Source: Escherichia coli (GTDB lineage: Bacteria; Pseudomonadota; Gammaproteobacteria; Enterobacterales; Enterobacteriaceae). From it: a stretch of 64,000 nt of DNA. The position numbers and the translations under genes were made by a program. Within the stretch, counting starts at the first letter, position 1. The number at the start of each line of letters is the position of its first letter. The stretch is from the NCBI RefSeq assembly GCF_050920415.1, contig NZ_CP169309.1, one strand, 5' to 3'. The notes below the pieces were generated by a model. That model was not told where the DNA came from and did no database searches. It was given only the letters and a program-made list of their open reading frames with translations. Below, piece by piece: positions 6,471 to 54,472 of the stretch.

Positions 6471-6546
6471 TATTTAGCGCGGTGCGGATGTGCGCCAACA
6501 CACCCGCACCGCTAATCACAATCCCTATTTCTAAGGAATAGTAATC

Positions 6547-6888
6547 ATGACTGACACGCATTCTATTGCACAACCGTTCGAAGCAGAAGTCTCCCCGGCA
6601 AATAACCGTCAATTAACCGTGAGTTATGCGAGTCGCTACCCGGATTACAGCCGTATTCCCGCCATCACCCTGAAAGGTCAGTGGCTGGAAGCCGCCGGTT
6701 TTGCCACCGGCACGGCGGTAGATGTCAAAGTGATGGAAGGCTGTATTGTCCTCACCGCCCAACCACCCGCCCCCGAAGAGAGCGAACTGATGCAGTCGCT
6801 GCGCCAGGTGTGCAAACTGTCAGCGCGTAAACAGAAGCAGGTGCAGGAGTTTATTGGGGTGATTGCCGGTAAACAGAAAGTCGCCTGA
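6547..6888 (+). CDS. symE: SOS-induced toxin SymE (AbrB-fold, type I toxin-antitoxin toxin)
   Basis: 113-aa ORF recognised as SymE, in the conserved position beside the hsd genes. Confidence 0.85.
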
Positions 6889-25100: not shown

Positions 25101-26047
25101 TGCCTCGCTTGAGGCGGATAAAAATATTCACCAGTCGGTTACGGTTACCGTGGTCCCAAACAGGGAACAATCGGTAATTATTTTGAATGCCGGATCGGGC
25201 AGTACGATTGCTAACAATACAGATACCGTTACCCTGACTGCCAGTGTGAAAGATGTTTATGGACACTCACTACCGGATGAGGATGTGAAATTTACCTTGC
25301 CAGCATCTATGACAGGGAACTTCACGCTAAGTAGTGACACCGCTCGCACCGATTCAAACGGCAATGCCGTGGTCACATTGCGAGGCACAAAAGCGGGTGA
25401 GTTTACAGTGACGGCGACACTGAGCAGAAATAATACCAGTGCTAATCAGCTAGTCTATTTTATTGGGGATACAAGCAGCGCGCAGCTCCAGCCGCTGACT
25501 GCCTCATTAAATACCATAGTTGCTGGCAACAGTACGGGGAGTACCCTGACAGCAACGATCCTGGACGCTTACCAAAATCCGCTTAAAGACCAACAGGTCA
25601 CTTTCCAGAGTAACGATGTCACACTAAGCGGAACAGAAGTCACCACCAATACGCAGGGTCAAGCGACGGTAATAATGACCAGCAATATTGCCGGACAACA
25701 TAACGTAGTGGTGAGCCGGAAAGCGCAATCATCCGATAATAAAACGTTTAGTTTATCAGTGCTCCCGGATGAAAGTTCGGCGAAGATAATAAGTATAACC
25801 GGAGCCGAAAAAACGATAATGGTTGGCGAAAACATCACGCTACGAATACACGTACAGGATGCGTTTAATAACGTCATAGCCGGTCAACGCGTCAGATTAA
25901 GTGCGCTGCCAACAGCTAACATTACGATAGACGATACGGCTTACACCGATAATAACTAGACTGGCCCCCTGAATCTCCAGACAACCAGTATCACTTAAAT
26001 AAGTGATAGTCTTAATACTAGTTTTTAGACTAGTCATTGGAGAACAG

Positions 26048-26413
26048 ATGATTGATGTCTTAGGGCCGGAGAAACGCAGACGGCGTACCACACAGGAAAA
26101 GATCGCAATTGTTCAGCAGAGCTTTGAACCGGGGATGACGGTCTCCCTCGTTGCCCGGCAACATGGTGTAGCAGCCAGCCAGTTATTTCTCTGGCGTAAG
26201 CAATACCAGGAAGGAAGTCTTACTGCTGTCGCCGCCGGAGAACAGGTTGTTCCTGCCTCTGAACTTGCTGCCGCCATGAAGCAGATTAAAGAACTCCAGC
26301 GCCTGCTCGGCAAGAAAACGATGGAAAATGAACTCCTCAAAGAAGCCGTTGAATATGGACGGGCAAAAAAGTGGATAGCGCACGCGCCCTTATTGCCCGG
26401 GGATGGGGAGTAA
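26048..26413 (+). CDS. insC: IS2 transposase OrfA (InsC)
   Basis: 121 aa from [24 protein letters not shown], with HTH region. Confidence 0.9.
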
Positions 26414-27276
26414 GCTTAGTCAGCCGTTGTCTCCGGGTGTCGCGTGCGCAGTTGCACGTCATTCTCAGACGAACCGATGACTGGATGGATGGCCGCCGCA
26501 GTCGTCACACTGATGATACGGATGTGCTTCTCCGTATACACCATGTTATCGGAGAGCTGCCCACGTATGGTTATCGTCGGGTATGGGCGCTGCTTCGCAG
26601 ACAGGCAGAACTTGATGGTATGCCTGCGATCAATGCCAAACGTGTTTACCGGATCATGCGCCAGAATGCGCTGTTGCTTGAGCGAAAACCTGCTGTACCG
26701 CCATCGAAACGGGCACATACAGGCAGAGTGGCCGTGAAAGAAAGCAATCAGCGATGGTGCTCTGACGGGTTCGAGTTCTGCTGTGATAACGGAGAGAGAC
26801 TGCGTGTCACGTTCGCGCTGGACTGCTGTGATCGTGAGGCACTGCACTGGGCGGTGACTACTGGCGGCTTCAACAGTGAAACAGTACAGGACGTCATGCT
26901 GGGAGCGGTGGAACGCCGCTTCGGCAACGATCTTCCGTCGTCTCCAGTGGAGTGGCTGACGGATAATGGTTCATGCTACCGGGCTAATGAAACACGCCAG
27001 TTCGCCCGGATGTTGGGACTTGAACCGAAGAACACGGCGGTGCGGAGTCCGGAGAGTAACGGAATAGCAGAGAGCTTCGTGAAAACGATAAAGCGTGACT
27101 ACATCAGTATCATGCCCAAACCAGACGGGTTAACGGCAGCAAAGAACCTTGCAGAGGCGTTCGAGCATTATAACGAATGGCATCCGCATAGTGCGCTGGG
27201 TTATCGCTCGCCACGGGAATATCTGCGGCAGCGGGCTTGTAATGGGTTAAGTGATAACAGATGTCTGGAAATATAG
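26371..27276 (+). CDS. insD: IS2 transposase OrfB (InsD), DDE integrase-like catalytic domain
   Basis: 301-aa ORF overlapping insC in the -1 frame, the IS3-family frameshift arrangement. Confidence 0.9.
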
Positions 27277-29098
27277 GGGCAAATCCACTAACGGCTATGC
27301 GTACGTTAACCTTATCAGCACCCAGCCTGGGGTCTATCAGGTGACAGCATCGCTGGACAATAACAGTAGTCGTAAAGTTGACGTGAGTGTGGCAAAGGGC
27401 AAACTCGAGTTAACATCATCGAAGCCAGAAACCACGGTCCATAACAGTGAAGGTATTACACTGACCGCAACGGCAAGAAATATTCAGGATGAATTGATGC
27501 CGGGGCAAATTATCACCTTTAGCGTAACACCTGATGGTGCAACGCTAAGCAATACAGGGGAAATCCTGACTGATCAGTCAGGTCAGGCCAAAGTGACGCT
27601 GACCAGTGACAAAGTCAATGTATATACCGTTACGGCCACAATGGGCAAAGACGTTCCCGTTCAGAGCCAGGTGACGGTTGCGGTTAAGGCTGATGCTACA
27701 ACGGCACATGTTGTGAGTGTAGTGGCTTCTCCTGACACCATAATCGCCGACGGGGTTGATAGCAGCACCATCACTTCACGAGTAGAAGATGATTATGGAT
27801 TCCCGGTTGAAGGTGTCGACGTTAGTTACAGCTTAGACACCAAAGGCAGCCCGGTGATTAATAATCCAACTACGCGTACCGATCAGTCCGGGCAAGTCAC
27901 GGCGACAATAACAGGTACATTGGCAGAAGCTCTAATTGTCAATGTTCAGGTCCCTGGCACAGTCCACAAATCCGCAGCCATTACATTGATTCCTGGTACG
28001 GCAGATGAAAGTAAATCAACATTGAAATCTAGCGTTAGCTCTTTTATGGCTGACTTCCAGGAGAGCGCGACACTTACGTTAATATTGCAAGACAAGTACG
28101 GTAACCCGATAGTGACGTCTGATCATCTGGAATTTGTCCAGTCAGGTGCCTACGTGAACCTCCTGAAGTTGAGCAATATTGATTACAGCCAAAGAAATTA
28201 CGGCGAGTACACCGTCACTGTCACTGGCGGCGTAGAGGGCAGAGCGACTCTCATTCCTATGCTGAACGGTGTTCATCAAGCAAACTTAAGCATATCACTG
28301 GATCTTGTCCGCTCAATAAAAGACATGCACGGTCATGTAACAGTCAACAACCATACCTTCACAACGGCTACATTCCCCAGTGAAGGTTTTATAGGGGCGT
28401 ACTACACACTTAATGATGACAACTTTGAAGCGGGTAAAACCGTTAGTGATTATATGTTCACAAGTTCACAGAGTTGGGTGTCTGTCGATGCTTCAGGTAA
28501 AGTTTCTTTCACAAATACCGGCGACCAAACTTCAGTCGTAATAAGCGCTGTTCCCAGACAAGGAGGTACAACCTACCAGACATTAATTAAGCTGAAAGGC
28601 TGGTGGGTGAATCATGGGAATCAAACCAATATCTGGCTAACTGCCAATGCGTTCTGCAACGCGAAAAGTGATGGATATAATCTTCCTGGCGTCGCACATT
28701 TAACGTCTGGCGAAAACAAACGCACGTTGGGATCGCTATATGGTGAGTGGGGGAACGTTGGGGAGTTTTCCAGTGATTCGCAATTTACCGCGGGTGCTTA
28801 CTGGACCAATCAACAGGATGATTACAATAGTCACGTCTATGTGCAGATGCTGACGGGCAGGATTGGAAGCGACGCAGATTCCAGCGCTCAACTAACTGCC
28901 TGCCGTAAATCACTTTAATTTCTGAAGTAGTTATTAAAGGATACCCTTTTGCGAGGGTATCCTTTCAGACTCATGACAAAAGCCAAATTGCCTGATGCGC
29001 TACGCTTATCAGGCTTACACTATCTCTCTAATATATTGAATTTTTATGCTTTTGTAGGGAGCACAAGGCGTTTATGCCGCATCTGGCACGAGCAAACA

Positions 29099-40823: not shown

Positions 40824-41726
40824 TTATTGATAAACAAAAGTCACGCCAATAATCGATTGCACATTCCCTGCAGTCACCTGCCCTCCGGTACGTGCGTAAT
40901 TTGCCGTTAATCCCAGACTTACCGCCGAAGTCCCTACTGCTCCTAACGATACCGTGTTATTCGCTGGAATAATCGTACCGTTGCGCGTCAACTGTACGCC
41001 GACGCCCTGTGCTGGTGAAAACGACGCGGTATTGGTGAAAATCGAATTGCCCGCATCTGCGGTTGTGCCGGAGAGGTAATACCCCAGGTTCTGGCTTTTC
41101 GCACAATAAACGGTAAGAGGAATAGGTACCGAACCGGGATAGTCCGGCAGAGTCACGGTGACATCACGAGCAGAAACATCACAGCCGCCAGTAGGCACCA
41201 CCACATCATTATTGGCGTAAATATTCCACACAAACTGGAAATCATCGCTGTTATAGTTATTGGTCTGTCGCAAAATTAGCACGGCAATTAATGAGCCAGC
41301 CTTAATCGCCACCCCACCCGCACTGCTCACAGGCGTCAAATAAAGCGCCACCGGCCACGGCTTATCCGTTCTCGAATTATAAACAACGCGCGGCGTTTCG
41401 CTGGTAGTCGGGAAAGGATAGCTACTGCCATTATATTTTACGGTCCCGGAAAAATTAGATAACACGCCGCCATAAGCCGAACCTCGTTGCAGTGTGACAT
41501 AGTCTGTAATGGTTTCCGGGTAATCGTTATGGCAAAAGATTTGCGTCGAAAGATCTACGACCAGGTTTTGCCCCACATTCACGGCGGGCGCAAGGTTTAC
41601 ATAAACATTGGCGCTGCCACCGCCAATAGGGATAGCGGTGCCATTGGCGGTTTTACAGGCGAATGACCAGGCATTTACCGACCAGCCCATCAGCAGTACA
41701 GCAAACAGGGTAATAACTCTTTTCAT
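40824..41726 (-). CDS. fimH: Type 1 fimbrial tip adhesin FimH
   Basis: About 300 aa from MKRVITLFAVLLMGWSVNAWSFACKTANGTAIP; last gene of the fim operon. Confidence 0.95.
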   Translation of the reverse strand: MKRVITLFAVLLMGWSVNAWSFACKTANGTAIPIGGGSANVYVNLAPAVNVGQNLVVDLSTQIFCHNDYPETITDYVTLQRGSAYGGVLSNFSGTVKYNGSSYPFPTTSETPRVVYNSRTDKPWPVALYLTPVSSAGGVAIKAGSLIAVLILRQTNNYNSDDFQFVWNIYANNDVVVPTGGCDVSARDVTVTLPDYPGSVPIPLTVYCAKSQNLGYYLSGTTADAGNSIFTNTASFSPAQGVGVQLTRNGTIIPANNTVSLGAVGTSAVSLGLTANYARTGGQVTAGNVQSIIGVTFVYQ

Positions 41727-41745
41727 TACAATCATCTCTTCGGAT

Positions 41746-42249
41746 TCAGCTGTAGGTATAGGTGATGCTAATCACTGCCTGAATGGTTCCCTGAGTGGCT
41801 CCGCCATTTACCGTCAATGCTCTAACCTGTAACGGGAAGTGCGCTGATTGTGAGGAATCATCCACCTGAACTGTTTTGGTTGCGCCAGTATTCAATGTGT
41901 TGCCACTGTCATCTTGCAGCTCTAACTGGATGTTTTGCGCGGTCCCCTGGTTTTTATAATATCCCGTACTATCGGCTGCCCCGCTGAAGCTGGCGGTGAC
42001 CCTCGATGTTCCCACCGGACAATGAGTCAACTCTAACGCAACATCATGCCAGGCCGATGCCGCACCGGCAGACACGAGACTGAAAGAATAAAGATCGCCG
42101 AGATCAACCGTGGCATTAGTGGTGGAAACCGTGCACGGTTTGGCGACGACCTTACCGTTCACGGTGATCGTGACATCGGCTGCCTGTAGCGTCGCACTTA
42201 CGAGCGTCAACATTGCCGCCAATAAACACCCACGTATGCGCCATTTCAT
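41746..42249 (-). CDS. fimG: Type 1 fimbrial minor subunit FimG
   Basis: About 167-aa pilin-fold ORF in operon position. Confidence 0.9.
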   Translation of the reverse strand: MKWRIRGCLLAAMLTLVSATLQAADVTITVNGKVVAKPCTVSTTNATVDLGDLYSFSLVSAGAASAWHDVALELTHCPVGTSRVTASFSGAADSTGYYKNQGTAQNIQLELQDDSGNTLNTGATKTVQVDDSSQSAHFPLQVRALTVNGGATQGTIQAVISITYTYS

Positions 42250-42261
42250 GAGCATCTCCTG

Positions 42262-42795
42262 TTACTGATATTCAAGAGTGAAGGTAGCCGTGGCATTGAT
42301 ATGCCCCGCAGTGACAGGCACCTGTGTCGCCATTAGCCGGGCGTAAAAATTCAGCGTATTTGGTTTACCCGGCGTCAGGGTCGTCCACGAAATCGCGGAG
42401 GATGGCGCATTAAGGGGGATCTGATTTTGTTGCTCATTCAGAAGCTGTATTCCCAGCCCCGCAGCCGCTGACACCGTATTTTCAAGTGCAAGCAGATTGG
42501 CATTGTGACTATCTGCAACGCCGGTAAACCCAACCTTTACGGCAGAAACGGCATTACCACAGGGTGACAGCAAAATACGAAATGGAACGACAGGAGTCGT
42601 CGCGCCAATGTTGTTAAATTGCTTCGCCGCGTTTTCCATCAGATCAACAGTAAAATTGGTTGATTCAGCGGCCACACTACAGCCGTTATCTCTGACATAG
42701 CCGCGGATAGTAATCGTGCTATCCGCAGCCAAAGCGTGACTTACCGCCAGCCACAAAAAAGCGCACAGAAGATAAAAAGGTTTGCTTTTCATCAC
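42262..42795 (-). CDS. fimF: Type 1 fimbrial minor subunit FimF
   Basis: About 176-aa pilin-fold ORF in operon position. Confidence 0.9.
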
Positions 42796-42801
42796 GCCCC
42801 C

Positions 42802-45438
42802 TTAACGACATTCAGCTGATAGCTGGGTTAATAACTGCTGCTGACTCTCTGGTGGCAGTTGATAATTGGCGACACAGTGAGCATTTTCCTCTTCTCCCCA
42901 TTTCACCTGAACTTTTCCCGCTAAAGGCATCCCGCTGAGATAAACCTGACCATTATCCGCAACAATGCCGCTACTCTGGCTACTCTCTGATGTGACCATC
43001 GCCCCAAACGGCAGCGGCTTATTATTATGGGTTAGCGTCATGAGCAGTTTTATCCCAACACGCGCTTTAAACTCTGCTCGCACAATTGCCCCACGGGTGG
43101 GAACAACGTTAGCGACCGCGTTATCTAAATCGACGTTATCAGCCAGGGTATTGGTATCCAGCGCCACTCTATTTTCCCGATATTCTGTGGCATAAGGCAG
43201 CACGGCATAGCCGCGCCAGTCGGTACGCACCCCCGTCTGGTTTTCAACTTTTGCATCTTTTGCGCCAGGCGCTTTAACAAGCACCACCGTATCGTTTAAC
43301 GGCTGCCCCAGCGTTACGCCATTGGCATGAGCCAATACCCCACCGCTGATTCCGTAATAGAGCTGCTTAATATCATCGCTATGGCTGTAACCAATGTTGG
43401 CATTGCCGTAGCCACCGCGATAATTCAGCGCGGCGTAGCCTGTACTTCCGCTATTTCCATCGCCTCCCCCGGCATAGCCGGTTTGCACGCTATAACTGAG
43501 GTTGTTGTCTTCCAGCAACGTACCGTATACACCGGCCAGATTGGTCATCCGACCGTTGAGATCGTGTGACATGCTGTAGCTGGCACTGGCATGTCGCCAC
43601 TGAGATTTACTGTCAGAACGCAGCCAGTGGCTGAAAGGAATATTGATGTTAAGAGCCAACATCTGATCCCGTCCTTTTTGCCACGCGTTTTTCGTCAGGC
43701 TATAGCTGAGCGTCCAGTTGATATCTTCGAAAGCAGTATTTAATCCAGCCTGGAATTGCTCATCGACATTACTCGTTCCCCAATAAGTTTGATGGCTACC
43801 ACTCAAATACAGTGTTGATGTGCGTCCGAGTTGCTGAGTAACAGTGAGCTGTAATTTCCCGCGTTTGTTATAAGCGAGATTGTAATAGTCGGTAAATTTC
43901 GGCTTAACCTGAATAACACCATCCTGTGTTTCGATGTTGTAGCCACTCATTCGGCTGTATGTTGTATCAGCGAAATTAAAATACCCGCTGGTCGAGTAAC
44001 GGTAACCCACTAACTGAAAATTCGTACCTGACTCATTGAGCGATTTGTTATAGAGAAAACGCACCGATTGACCGTCATGCTGACTGTCATCAGGAAGTGT
44101 GGAATTAGCCTGCGTCATATCCACGGACAGAGCGCCCAGTGCCCCCATGTTTTTCCCGATACCGAAATTAAAAGCGCGATAACGATCCGCCAGTTGCGTT
44201 CCACCATATATTGTCCAGCCAGCCGGAAGGCCGTGGAGTAATGTACTCTGGAAAAAACGGGGTTTATCCTGTTGCGCATTTCCACTACGGTATTCTCCAG
44301 CCGTAATGGAATAACGAGTATGCCCTTCACGTTGCAAAAGCGGGACTGACGAATAGGGTACGGTAAAGATCTGCGTGCTACCGTCAGCCTCTTTAATCGT
44401 TACCTGCAAGTCACCACTATTACCTGCGGCATAGATATCGTTGATGGTAAAAGGCCCCGGTGGCACCGTACTATTATAAATGTCATACCCATTTTGTTTA
44501 ATAGTGACCTGTGCAGTACCACGCGCAATACCGTGGATCACCGGGGCAAATCCTCTTTGGCTATCGGGTAACATATTGTCATCTGAGGCCAATTGTGCGC
44601 CGCGAAAGTTAATACCATCGAAAATATCGCCCTGAGTATAACCATCACCCAGCGTCAGCCGGGAACGTAACGGAATTATGTCTCGCTCAAGCCAGGTATT
44701 GATATGTTGCCATTTATTTTTGCTACCTGATGAACTGTCGCTACTGTTATAACTCCAGGTGGTATTGTCGCGTAAACGCCATGCACCAATATTTAACCCA
44801 CTCTGTAGGTTTAAATATGCATAATGGCTGTTACCACCAATCCGATTCTGTACACTATTTCCGCTGAAATTATAATTGAGCAATCCGGCATTAATACCGG
44901 GGTCCCATAACTCTGGAGGAATATAACCACGCGCGCGATTACTCATAAATGCCTGAGGGATCGTCAGGTTGAGTCGCTGCTGACCAACATCTAAATGCGC
45001 AGTAGCGTCATGGATCATTGTGGTTAATGGCACGCAGGCATCATCCGCCAGCAAATTCATACCGGAGACAGAAGCCGTATTCAGCCCCATACTGGCAAGT
45101 TGAGCGCGCGTCAGGCAGGGAACAATCCCTTGTTCACTGTCGCCCGTATTAAAGGTGACATCACGCGTTGCCATATAACCATTATTCAAATAGATATCGA
45201 CGCGATACGTCCCAGGTGGTAATTCTTGACCATTCTCAAAACGCGATAAATCAGCCACAGCCTGGGGATCATCCGCTAAAAAACGCGGGTTAAAATAGAG
45301 TTCGGCAGATGACAAAGGTGCCTGTGTGGCAAAAACACAGGCAACAGAGAGCCGAACAAAAAAACCAGCCAGACGAGGCTTACGAATATGCAAGCATTGT
45401 GTGTTTCGCTGGTAAAGTCTTAAATTCAGATATGACAT
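42802..45438 (-). CDS. fimD: Type 1 fimbrial outer-membrane usher FimD
   Basis: 878-aa usher-family protein. Confidence 0.95.
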   Translation of the reverse strand: MSYLNLRLYQRNTQCLHIRKPRLAGFFVRLSVACVFATQAPLSSAELYFNPRFLADDPQAVADLSRFENGQELPPGTYRVDIYLNNGYMATRDVTFNTGDSEQGIVPCLTRAQLASMGLNTASVSGMNLLADDACVPLTTMIHDATAHLDVGQQRLNLTIPQAFMSNRARGYIPPELWDPGINAGLLNYNFSGNSVQNRIGGNSHYAYLNLQSGLNIGAWRLRDNTTWSYNSSDSSSGSKNKWQHINTWLERDIIPLRSRLTLGDGYTQGDIFDGINFRGAQLASDDNMLPDSQRGFAPVIHGIARGTAQVTIKQNGYDIYNSTVPPGPFTINDIYAAGNSGDLQVTIKEADGSTQIFTVPYSSVPLLQREGHTRYSITAGEYRSGNAQQDKPRFFQSTLLHGLPAGWTIYGGTQLADRYRAFNFGIGKNMGALGALSVDMTQANSTLPDDSQHDGQSVRFLYNKSLNESGTNFQLVGYRYSTSGYFNFADTTYSRMSGYNIETQDGVIQVKPKFTDYYNLAYNKRGKLQLTVTQQLGRTSTLYLSGSHQTYWGTSNVDEQFQAGLNTAFEDINWTLSYSLTKNAWQKGRDQMLALNINIPFSHWLRSDSKSQWRHASASYSMSHDLNGRMTNLAGVYGTLLEDNNLSYSVQTGYAGGGDGNSGSTGYAALNYRGGYGNANIGYSHSDDIKQLYYGISGGVLAHANGVTLGQPLNDTVVLVKAPGAKDAKVENQTGVRTDWRGYAVLPYATEYRENRVALDTNTLADNVDLDNAVANVVPTRGAIVRAEFKARVGIKLLMTLTHNNKPLPFGAMVTSESSQSSGIVADNGQVYLSGMPLAGKVQVKWGEEENAHCVANYQLPPESQQQLLTQLSAECR

Positions 45439-45504
45439 TATTCCTCCGGTTTAAAATTACCCGGCAGTCAATTCTTTTTATTCAGGCGAAAAATTCCCCC
45501 TGCG

Positions 45505-46230
45505 TTATACCATTACGCCCGTCATTTTTGGAGTAAGTGCGCCATAATCATTTATTGTTCGGTAAGTAATGTTGCTTCCTGCATCAGAAGGTAATTTAAC
45601 TGTGCTTTCGCCCATTGGAGGCACCAATGCATTTTCAAGAACCCGAGTTCCGGCATTCAACTCTGTTACCGTCAGGTAATAGGGTGTCGGGTTAATCAGC
45701 GTCAGAGAATTCGCGCTACGACGAAATCTTAACTTTTCTGCGGCCTGATCGGGTGGCAACGCTAATTTAGCCGGGCGATAGTACAATTTAATGCGGCTGA
45801 TAATTGCGAGCTGTAGCGTATTCTCAGTCAATTTTGATTTATCCATTGACGGAATCGCTTTAACGTTCATCCAGAATAAACTTTCCCGGTCCTGTGGCAA
45901 TTGGTTATTTGTTGCATCAAGAATACGCAAGGTATTCTCTTTTTTTCCCTTCATCGCAAACAGAGGTGGTGTCACGATAAAACGACCATCCTTTACACCA
46001 TCGGCATTTTCTACCCATGATTGAATTAAATAGGTGCTATTTTCATCATTATTTGTCACGGCAAGTTGTACTTGTTTTTGCCCTGCCGGATAAATAACGC
46101 GAGTCGCACCTAAGGCCACTCCTGCTTCCGCGCGTCCGGCAGCCATCATTGCCATGATCATCAGGATACCTGCCAGCAAGCAGAATGTTATTTCCTGCAA
46201 TTTCCTTACATTGACGTTTTTATTACTCAC
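45505..46230 (-). CDS. fimC: Type 1 fimbrial periplasmic chaperone FimC
   Basis: 241-aa PapD-like chaperone. Confidence 0.95.
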   Translation of the reverse strand: MSNKNVNVRKLQEITFCLLAGILMIMAMMAAGRAEAGVALGATRVIYPAGQKQVQLAVTNNDENSTYLIQSWVENADGVKDGRFIVTPPLFAMKGKKENTLRILDATNNQLPQDRESLFWMNVKAIPSMDKSKLTENTLQLAIISRIKLYYRPAKLALPPDQAAEKLRFRRSANSLTLINPTPYYLTVTELNAGTRVLENALVPPMGESTVKLPSDAGSNITYRTINDYGALTPKMTGVMV

Positions 46231-46266
46231 TGTCCTGTTCCTGTTATCACATTATCTGCTGAACAA

Positions 46267-46806
46267 TTACTGATAGGTTAAAGAGAACCAGGCCTGAGCA
46301 TTGGCGATGCCGCCAGTAACCCGACGCCCGGTAGCACGATATTTGGCGATGAAATGTAACGAAGTAGAGCCTGAGTAAAGCCGTTTCCAGTTTGCTGGAG
46401 GACGATTAATCGGTACAAGGTTTCCTTCATCATCAAACAACGCTACGCCAATATTGGTGGCAATCCCTGGCCCCTCTCCCACGGAAAGCACATCCGGATT
46501 TTTACCATCCGCGACACCGTGAAACGCCACACCCACACGTTCACTCACCACCGTGCTACATTCCCGTAAATGAATAACAAAAGGCACCGGTGCGCTATCT
46601 TCCCCAACCGCATGAAACCGGTTACTGCTGATTTGCCCCATATTGACCGTCATTTGTTTATCACCAGCTTCAATCCGGCAAGCTTCTGCAATAATGACGC
46701 CCTGAAATTGCATATTTCCGCCGGGCAACGTGGTGTTCCATTTATTTCCGGCCAGAGCAAACATTGGCAGCAACGACGCTAATAGAAATAATCTCTTCCT
46801 TTTCAT
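46267..46806 (-). CDS. fimI: Fimbrin-like protein FimI
   Basis: 179 aa from [19 protein letters not shown]; the longer track ORF (to 46938) overlaps the fimA 3' end. Confidence 0.85.
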
Positions 46807-46870
46807 CGTTATTTTTATCGCACAAGGGTGGGCATCCCTGCCCGTAAAGACGTCCCTGAACCTGGGTAGG

Positions 46871-47419
46871 TTATTGATACTGAACCTTGAAGGTCGCATC
46901 CGCATTAGCAGCACCTGGGGTTGCGGCACCGGTTGCAAAGTAACGCGCCTGGAACGGAATGGTGTTAGTACCGTTATTCAGGGTTGTTTGTGCACTAAAT
47001 GTCGCACCGTCCAGCGCCAGCGCAGCACCGGTTCTGTCCAGAATTTGCACACCAACGTTTGTTGCGCTACCTGTAGCAGAACTCTGCAGAGCCAGTACAT
47101 CAGTATGCGTAGCATCAATTGCCGTACCTAAGAAGGCAACAGCGGCTTTTGTAGCAACAGTGGTATCGCAATCATTCAGCTGAATGTTAAAACCAACGGC
47201 AGAGCTGGTTGCTCCAGTCTGCTTCAGGCTAGCGGTACGAACCTGTCCTAACTGAACGGTTTGATCAACAGAGCCTGCATCAACTGCGCAAGCGGCGTTA
47301 ACAACTTCCCCTTTGAAGTGAACGGTCCCACCATTTACCGTCGTAGTATCGGCCAGAGCCGCTGCGGAACTGAGGGACAGAGCCGACAGAACAACGATCG
47401 CCAAAGTTTTAATTTTCAT
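46871..47419 (-). CDS. fimA: Type 1 fimbrial major subunit FimA
   Basis: 182 aa from [23 protein letters not shown]; the track ORF is extended upstream to 47569. Confidence 0.95.
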
Positions 47420-47537
47420 GCTGCTTTCCTTTAAAAAAACTGTTTCTAAATCGACATGGGCAGTCGTTCTGTACACTTTGTTTTGAAACGAATTGGACTG
47501 CCAACACTGCACAGTTCTTCCCCAAAAGATGAAACAT

Positions 47538-47851
47538 TTGGGGCCATTTTGACTCATAGAGGAAAGCATTACGCACGAACTTTCTTAGTTTATTATTTGG
47601 ATTTATATTCTATTAATACATTCTTTTATAGATTTTCATATTGAACACGGTGGTTTTTGGAGAGATGAATGAGGAAGTTGCTTCGAGACACAGAAACGTT
47701 AACTTTACCTATAGCGGAGGTGATGTGAAATTAATTTATAAGAGAAACAATTTACATATCAAACAGTTAGTTGCTTTATATCGTTTTTTTATATTTTTAT
47801 GCTTGAGAACAAATACAAAACTTTTTTATGATATGGACAGTTTGGCCCCAA
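47538..47851. promoter_or_regulatory. fimS: fimS invertible phase-variation switch (314 bp, 9-bp inverted repeats), apparently in OFF orientation
   Basis: TTGGGGCCA at 47538-47546 and its inverse TGGCCCCAA at 47843-47851 are exactly 314 bp apart. Inside, a sigma70-like promoter (TTGAGA, 18 bp, TATGATA at 47827-47833) reads on the + strand toward fimE, away from fimA. Confidence 0.75.
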
Positions 47852-47898
47852 TTGTCTTATATTTCTTTATCTTTTCATATTATTATCAATAAGTTACA

Positions 47899-48495
47899 TC
47901 AGGCATCTTCTCTTTTTAATTTTTCGTTTATGAGATTATTTCTTTCCCATAATCCGGCAAAACGTGCAGCATTACTGGCGGTATAACGCACAGTATGGCG
48001 AATATTTCGATGCCCGAGATAATCCTGAATTAAACGGGTATCTGCACCACGCTCCGCCAGTTCATAACCGCAAGCATGCCTTAACATATGAGGATGAGTC
48101 TGCGTCACGGTTCCAGCTTCAATACCGGCATCGCGAATAATGCGATAGGCCTGCTGGCGAGAAAGTCGACTCCCGCGGCGAGAAATAAATATGGCGTCGG
48201 TCTGGTCAGCGCCTTTCCAGTTAGTACGTTCCTGGGTCCAGCGCTCCACAGCTTCACGCTCATCAAAACGTAACGGGTGAACGGTAGAAAATCCGTTCTT
48301 CAGTCGGCGGATATTTATTCGACCTTCGTTAAGGTCAAGATCCTGATAATGCAGATCAAGCAGTTCACTAATACGCATCCCATGCCGATATGCCAACAAA
48401 ATTAGGCAATAATCTCTGGCTCCCGTTGCCCCGTAACAAACCGCCTGCATCATGTCCTGAACTTCTTTACCGGTAAGATAACGACGTTTACTCAC
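47899..48495 (-). CDS. fimE: Tyrosine recombinase FimE (ON-to-OFF switching)
   Basis: 198-aa tyrosine recombinase next to fimS. Confidence 0.95.
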   Translation of the reverse strand: MSKRRYLTGKEVQDMMQAVCYGATGARDYCLILLAYRHGMRISELLDLHYQDLDLNEGRINIRRLKNGFSTVHPLRFDEREAVERWTQERTNWKGADQTDAIFISRRGSRLSRQQAYRIIRDAGIEAGTVTQTHPHMLRHACGYELAERGADTRLIQDYLGHRNIRHTVRYTASNAARFAGLWERNNLINEKLKREDA

Positions 48496-52909: not shown

Positions 52910-53890
52910 ATGAACGCAATAATATCGCCCGATTATTACTATGTTCTTACCGTTGCTGGTCTGTCTAATGCCATGGCGTATGGCGAAGGACTGCCATTAC
53001 CGGACAGGGAAGATACGCCTCATCCCAGAATTAAACAATTAGCGAGATTTGCGCATACGCATCCCGGAGGCCCGTCATGTCACTTTAACGACATTATTCC
53101 ACTGACTCACTGCCCACACGATGTTCAGGATATGCAGGGTTATCACCATCCTCTGGCAACGAATCATCAAACACAGTACGGCACCGTTGGCCAGGCTCTG
53201 CATATTGCACGGAAATTACAGCCCTTTATTCCTGATAACGCGGGGGTTCTCATCGTTCCATGTTGCCGTGGCGGATCGGCTTTTACTGCGGGCAGCGAAG
53301 GGACATATTCAGAACGGCACGGAGCCAGCCATGATGCTTGTCGTTGGGGAACGGATACCCCTCTATACCAGGATTTAGTCAGCAGAACGCGAGCCGCACT
53401 GGCAAAAAATCCGCATAACAAATTCCTCGGCGTATGCTGGATGCAAGGCGAATTTGACTTAATGACAAGTGACTACGCGTCACACCCTCAACACTTTAAT
53501 CATATGGTTGAAGCCTTTCGTAGGGATCTAAAACAATACCATTCTCAGCTTAATAATATTACTGGCGCGCCGTGGTTTTGCGGCGATACCACCTGGTACT
53601 GGAAAGAAAGTTTCCCTCATGCGTATGAAGCTATTTATGGCAATTATCAAAATAATATTTTAGCCAATATTATTTTCATCGACTTCCAGCAACAAGGTGA
53701 AAGAGGGCTGACGAACGCGCCTGATGAAGATCCGGACGATTTAAGCACGGGATATTTCGGTTCAGCGTACCGGTCACCGGAGAACTGGACGACGGCACTG
53801 CGAAGCAGTCATTTCAGCGCGGCAGCCCGTCGGGGGATTATTTCTGACAGGTTTGTAGAAGCAATTTTGCAGTTTTGGAGCGAAAGGTGA
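52910..53890 (+). CDS. nanS: 9-O-acetyl-N-acetylneuraminate esterase NanS
   Basis: 326-aa ORF recognised as NanS/YjhS. Confidence 0.85.
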   Translation: MNAIISPDYYYVLTVAGLSNAMAYGEGLPLPDREDTPHPRIKQLARFAHTHPGGPSCHFNDIIPLTHCPHDVQDMQGYHHPLATNHQTQYGTVGQALHIARKLQPFIPDNAGVLIVPCCRGGSAFTAGSEGTYSERHGASHDACRWGTDTPLYQDLVSRTRAALAKNPHNKFLGVCWMQGEFDLMTSDYASHPQHFNHMVEAFRRDLKQYHSQLNNITGAPWFCGDTTWYWKESFPHAYEAIYGNYQNNILANIIFIDFQQQGERGLTNAPDEDPDDLSTGYFGSAYRSPENWTTALRSSHFSAAARRGIISDRFVEAILQFWSER

Positions 53891-54472
53891 GCGGGGAGTT
53901 TATTCATGGGGGATGTCCTTGTCCGTTCCCAAAACAGGCAACAAAAAACAAATGAGATCAAGGTAATATCTCTTCACTTGCAGGCTCGAACAGCAGGCAA
54001 TTGCCAATATAATAATCTGGCACAAGGGTGAAAAACGCGCACCGCATAAACCGTTGTTATTGCTTAAAGATTAGCCGGATGCCTTAATAGACATCCGCGC
54101 CTTTTCGATTATGGCTCGGAAATCTACGAACCTCTGCACAGTTTACTGGAACGTTTTGGACCACAGCGTTCACAGTACCGACCTGATATGCCGTTCTGGC
54201 GATTATAAGGCGACGGATTCTGGCAAATAGACGATGATAATATGCTTAATGATGTTCAAAGAAATTAGGCCATCATTATATTATTGCTTGCATTTTCTTT
54301 CATTCCCAAAAGCACCCGCCATTAATCCCAGGCGCATTATGCAAAGGAAAATGATTAGGTAAACAATAAGATTTATAATCAGGAAAGGCGACTCGCAATA
54401 AAACGCAAAGTCGCCTTAACATTGGTAAAATATGCCCTTTACTACTCCTGTATCATGAACGGCTCATCACAT

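Follow-up and report, generated by a model that had tools for sequence, protein, structure and literature searches.

The window, which is the whole 64-kb stretch of Escherichia coli DNA analysed here, contains the whole type 1 fimbriae locus. The genes fimAICDFGH occupy positions 40824-47419 on the minus strand, with fimA first, and a gap of 479 bp separates fimA from fimE. Within this gap, downstream of fimE and directly upstream of fimA, lies the fimS element at 47538-47851, which is exactly 314 bp long. The genes of the region and the boundaries of the element were as follows:

46871-47419, minus strand: fimA, the major type 1 fimbrial subunit, with its ATG at 47419 (annotated in NZ_CP169399.1)
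47538-47546: fimA-side 9-bp inverted repeat (IRR), TTGGGGCCA on the plus strand, with the flanks on both sides identical to K-12
47843-47851: fimE-side 9-bp inverted repeat (IRL), TGGCCCCAA on the plus strand, the reverse complement of TTGGGGCCA, with repeat and adjacent flanking bases identical to K-12
47899-48495, minus strand: fimE, tyrosine recombinase biased ON-to-OFF, a 198-aa ORF annotated as fimE in NZ_CP169399.1
48973-49575, minus strand: fimB, tyrosine recombinase that inverts fimS both ways, a 200-aa ORF annotated as fimB in the near-identical NZ_CP169399.1
58295-58376, minus strand: tRNA gene at the leuX position (Rfam tRNA, 59.4 bits), with a tRNA-Leu annotated at the matching place in NZ_CP169399.1

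A role of leuX in FimB expression is the claim made in the title of Ritter et al. 1997, a reference cited in PMC11316696. On the other side of the locus, the first 18 nt of FimR2, an sRNA of the fimA 3' UTR (PMC9723502), were found on the minus strand at 46843-46860, between fimA and fimI, with a single mismatch (TTCAGGGACGTCTTTACG here versus TTCAGGGACGTCATTACG).

An earlier note on this DNA had described a 314-bp fimS element bounded by exact 9-bp inverted repeats, and both the length and the repeats were borne out. The sequences TTGGGGCCA and TGGCCCCAA match exactly and occur once each in the 64-kb window. At least two matches to the repeat 9-mer were nevertheless obtained in 25 of 100 shuffles of the window, so that a 9-bp pair alone is within chance. 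What makes the pair meaningful is its position between fimE and fimA together with homology, as the element is identical to the K-12 fimS at 275 of 314 positions without indels.

It has previously been established that both the fimA promoter and a Rho-dependent terminator of fimE are located in fimS, and that inversion connects or disconnects both (PMC9993118, PMC9096935, PMC11316696). FimB can turn the element either way and FimE acts mainly from ON to OFF; inversion needs IHF and is promoted by Lrp, and its directional bias is shaped by Fis and H-NS (PMC9993118, PMC9096935, PMC11316696). As FimE outweighs FimB, the majority of wild-type cells carry no pili (PMC9096935).

A scan for sigma-70 consensus matches gave the following best site inside the element:

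47803-47832, plus strand: putative fimA promoter (-35 TTGAGA at 47803-47808, 18-bp spacer, -10 TATGAT at 47827-47832), matching 10 of 12 sigma-70 consensus positions

The site ends 10 bp from the fimE-side repeat and is directed to fimE, away from fimA. The coordinates thus agree with the earlier description of a plus-strand promoter reading toward fimE, with fimA on the minus strand on the other side. K-12 has the same two hexamers and the same 10 bp between the -10 and the repeat, while the spacer is changed at 4 of 18 positions. The same description had called this the only strong promoter inside the element; it is indeed the best match there, but it is not alone. A second 10/12 match on the plus strand (TGGACA-18-TATATT, 47834-47863) straddles the fimE-side repeat, and two 9/12 matches lie on the minus strand inside the element (47762-47733 and 47729-47702). 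The number of promoter-like sites in the region (4 observed versus 2.5 +/- 1.9 in shuffles) is within the range of the shuffles, and consensus matching alone can therefore not single out the promoter. The case for 47803-47832 as the fimA promoter is built on its fit to the consensus, on how it is conserved and on where the published geometry puts the promoter, and these together suggest that transcription would start here. Of the site at 47834-47863, only the -35 belongs to fimS, the -10 being in the flank on the fimE side; this arrangement exists only in the OFF orientation, and the site points antisense into fimE. K-12 carries TGTATT at its -10 position, and in DNA this rich in A and T the match may have arisen by chance.

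The earlier note had suggested that the element was captured in phase OFF, provided that the site is the fimA promoter, and had proposed alignment to published ON and OFF sequences as the refuting test. We compared the window with two reference switches, that of the K-12 MG1655-derived strain MGY (NZ_CP019629.1) and that of STEC409 (NZ_CP041422.1). The two switches share the locus, the 9-bp repeats and the 314-bp length with the window, and the orientation is OFF in MGY and opposite to that of the window in STEC409. The published BstUI assay with primers OL4/OL20 gives fragments of 539+187 for OFF and 433+293 for ON (PMC9993118). Performed in silico, it gave 540+188, the OFF pattern, for MGY and 434+293 bp, the ON pattern, for STEC409, which also showed the published ON pattern with HinfI (128+522 bp). 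Pairwise alignment placed the fimS of the window colinear with that of MGY (275/314 identical, no gaps; 177 matches when inverted), and it aligned with that of STEC409 as the reverse complement only (276/314). STEC409 carries the common allele, being identical to K-12 at 311 of 314 positions once inverted. The segment thus matched OFF and not ON.

The diagnostic digestion of the window allele itself depends on the following site:

47551-47555: HinfI site (GACTC), the sole standard diagnostic restriction site kept in the allele

The HinfI assay with primers CMD1258/CMD1259 gives 128+522 bp for ON and 411+239 bp for OFF (PMC6727828). In silico, the window gave 411+238 bp, and the same sequence with 47538-47851 inverted gave 128+521 bp. 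A SnaBI/HinfI digest had been suggested as a check; the HinfI half of it supported OFF, whereas the amplicon of the window allele has no SnaBI site, and no BstUI site either. Both sites have been lost in comparison with MGY.

The published geometry led to the same orientation. The positions of the Fis, LRP-2 and BstUI sites were taken from PMC9993118, according to which the Fis site in phase OFF is located 50 bp from the right-hand (fimA-side) repeat, at what is called the "fimA promoter-distal end". The promoter must therefore be at the fimE-side end in OFF, as TTGAGA/TATGAT is here. For the element to be ON instead, the true fimA promoter would have to lie on the minus strand and read toward fimA, for example at 47762-47733 or 47729-47702, where the two weak consensus matches were found. 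These matches are at the level expected by chance for an AT-rich region, both published restriction assays class the orientation as OFF in silico, and the promoter-distal end is on the fimA side in OFF (PMC9993118), so that we consider the probability of an ON element to be negligible.

We also counted the two orientations among complete E. coli genomes, using as queries the 614 bp spanning both junctions, either as in the window or with the element inverted, and requiring a colinear match over at least 80% of the length. Of 4719 genomes with a match, 4454 had the orientation of the window and 245 the inverted one (94.8% versus 5.2%). The paper on the NU14 genome likewise remarks that most E. 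coli genomes are in the OFF orientation (PMC5477200). The HinfI pattern, the comparison with MGY and STEC409, the geometry of the Fis site and the census all support the phase-OFF reading. OFF is the usual state in E. coli assemblies, and finding it here is therefore not very informative about the strain itself. In the same census, 20 of the 4719 genomes matched neither orientation over 80% of the query; in strain MB15, for example, only 84 bp matched.

A recorded orientation may also fail to report on the culture, if the assembler took one form out of a mixed population or if it was adjusted manually to match other genomes. Mixed ON and OFF populations are normal, with about 8% ON in stool metagenomes (PMC10925322), and the orientation in the NU14 genome was chosen in this way (PMC5477200). 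However, cultures for sequencing are usually mostly OFF (PMC9096935, PMC10925322), and the 245 deposited genomes in the ON state show that assemblies are not all normalised to OFF. We consider such a choice unlikely for the present assembly; it would not conflict with the OFF sequence and would limit only what can be said about the cells.

Apart from the promoter, two sites for IHF and a candidate part of the fimE terminator could be placed in and around the element:

47884-47896, plus strand: IHF consensus match at the IHF-1 position (TATCAATAAGTTA fits WATCAANNNNTTR), just outside the fimE-side repeat and identical in K-12
47757-47769, plus strand: IHF consensus match at the IHF-2 position (TATCAAACAGTTA fits WATCAANNNNTTR), inside the element, with 0 of 13 positions different from K-12
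47649-47688, minus strand (fimE-sense): candidate rut part of the Rho-dependent fimE terminator, a C-rich, G-poor stretch of 40 nt (16 C versus 2 G)

These positions correspond to the published arrangement, in which IHF-1 adjoins IRL, IHF-2 is within fimS and the Rho-dependent fimE terminator is located within fimS as well (PMC9993118). The best 40-mer on the strand opposite the C-rich stretch had 6 C versus 2 G, and K-12 has 17 C versus 2 G at the same place, likewise on the fimE-sense strand. The stretch lies on the fimE-sense strand, and is thus connected to fimE, only in the present orientation. Hinde et al. in 2005 reportedly placed the rut-like region of the fimE terminator centrally in the switch and found it to act in phase OFF. 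The position of the C-rich stretch fits this, and the fimE message would then be expected to terminate inside the switch.

Compared with K-12, the fimS of the window has 39 substitutions and no indels (87.6% identity). They are unevenly spread, and most lie on the Fis/Lrp side, with 20 of the 39 in one segment:

47572-47660: promoter-distal segment, the part most diverged from K-12 (20 of 89 positions differ), with the K-12 Fis and Lrp sites on the same side

On the other hand, no substitution fell in any of the 53 positions that make up the repeats, the two promoter hexamers, the bases between the -10 and the adjoining repeat, and the IHF-2 core (hypergeometric P 4e-4, with the parts chosen post hoc). 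Conservation also extends for at least 20 bp to either side of both repeats, and MGY has the same -35, -10, IHF cores and repeat flanks. FimB and FimE are both full length and identical to those of K-12 at 199 of 200 and 193 of 198 residues, respectively. Substitutions that spare the core in this manner would be expected if a working switch had been under purifying selection.

The divergence from K-12 is limited to about 46990-47930, a stretch that takes in part of fimA together with fimS and the spacer on its fimE side; in the genes around it, most 100-bp windows are 93-100% identical. At least 97.9% identity to the allele over 614 bp was seen in only 13 further complete genomes; the next best was 93.8% identical, and the bulk was near 90%. 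When one genome per bacterial species was searched with two exact patterns specific for the allele (24 and 22 nt), no match was obtained. This rare fimS allele is the unusual point of the locus, and the only one; the rest corresponds to the well-known fim switch in the state in which it is usually assembled.

Both orientations of fimS occur across E. coli genomes, and the allele of the window was found in OFF only, in all 14 complete genomes that carry it. It could be asked whether this lineage holds its switch permanently, or with a strong bias, in OFF, as a stable trait caused by altered Fis and Lrp sites or by a trans factor. The 39 substitutions, 20 of them in the 89-bp segment carrying the K-12 Fis and Lrp sites, would be in line with such a lock, as would the 14 of 14 genomes in OFF, and locked strains with intact recombinases do exist, e.g., EPEC E2348/69 (PMC9096935). 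However, 14 of 14 is unremarkable because it is expected at an ON rate of 5% (0.95^14 ~0.49), and against a background of 95% OFF the count neither supports nor excludes a lock. Furthermore, the switch has kept its exact 314-bp length, its repeats with flanks of at least 20 bp, its promoter hexamers and both IHF cores, and the two recombinases FimB and FimE are intact. Taken together, a locked switch appears very improbable to us.

Known locked switches, i.e., those of O157, of Shigella with inactivated fimB and of EPEC E2348/69, which is held OFF by Fis, are OFF in sequence like the window. Their lesions are absent from it, as the full 314 bp are present and fimB and fimE are intact. Locking by a known lesion was thus ruled out, with no deletion in the element and neither recombinase gene disrupted. 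In the census, the matches of O157 genomes were about 15 bp shorter (599 versus 614 bp). We take the deletion in the O157 switch to be 16 bp, and the shorter matches are consistent with this known deletion, which the window does not have.

Changes at the Fis and Lrp side could also act more mildly. With 20 of 89 positions changed in the segment carrying these sites, the kinetics of switching could differ from those in K-12. If the changes altered occupancy by Lrp and Fis, the rare allele (about 14 of the 4719 genomes with the locus) would give its lineage a different ON/OFF set-point, or a different environmental control, of fimbriation. We regard this as a tentative and rather doubtful proposal.

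The reading that best accounts for these observations is that 47538-47851 is a canonical fimS assembled in phase OFF. Very probably it records the majority state of a working switch and not a permanent loss of fimbriation. The intact FimB and FimE and the conserved core sites make such a snapshot the most likely explanation, and they suggest that the element can be inverted in this strain. The promoter adjoining the fimE-side repeat would fire on the plus strand toward fimE, and since it points that way, fimAICDFGH on the minus strand would be left without a promoter in the OFF configuration. OFF would then be the majority state, in the sequenced culture, of a switch that is reversible.

It follows from the intact fimB, fimE and switch core that an OFF assembly does not mean that the strain is unable to make type 1 fimbriae. 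For strains with this allele, two of the three standard PCR-digest tests, the SnaBI and BstUI assays, would leave the amplicon uncut, and the HinfI assay is usable. Beyond correct annotation, the orientation as such has little importance, since about 95% of the complete genomes of E. coli are deposited in OFF.

Some further observations were made elsewhere in the window. Compared with E. coli MFDS1022581 (NZ_CP169399.1), the window was 100% identical apart from two SNPs (39117 and 52472), and the placement of IS2 differed. A 1331-bp IS2 copy is present in the window at 25957-27287, within the inverse autotransporter gene iatD, where the coordinate offset implies a 5-bp target duplication, and the IS2 copy found after nanM in MFDS1022581 is absent from the window (about 52962-52966). 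At about 53130-54210, what follows nanM is annotated in NZ_CP169399.1 as gene remnants, with a sialate O-acetylesterase that is truncated and a phosphorothioated-DNA-binding restriction endonuclease that is frameshifted. The fimB regulatory neighbourhood has thus partly decayed on its nan side. Finally, the SymR antitoxin RNA was found at 6476-6552 on the minus strand (Rfam RF01809, 93.1 bits), opposite symE, and SymR/symE adjoin a type I restriction-modification cluster and a GmrSD-domain gene.
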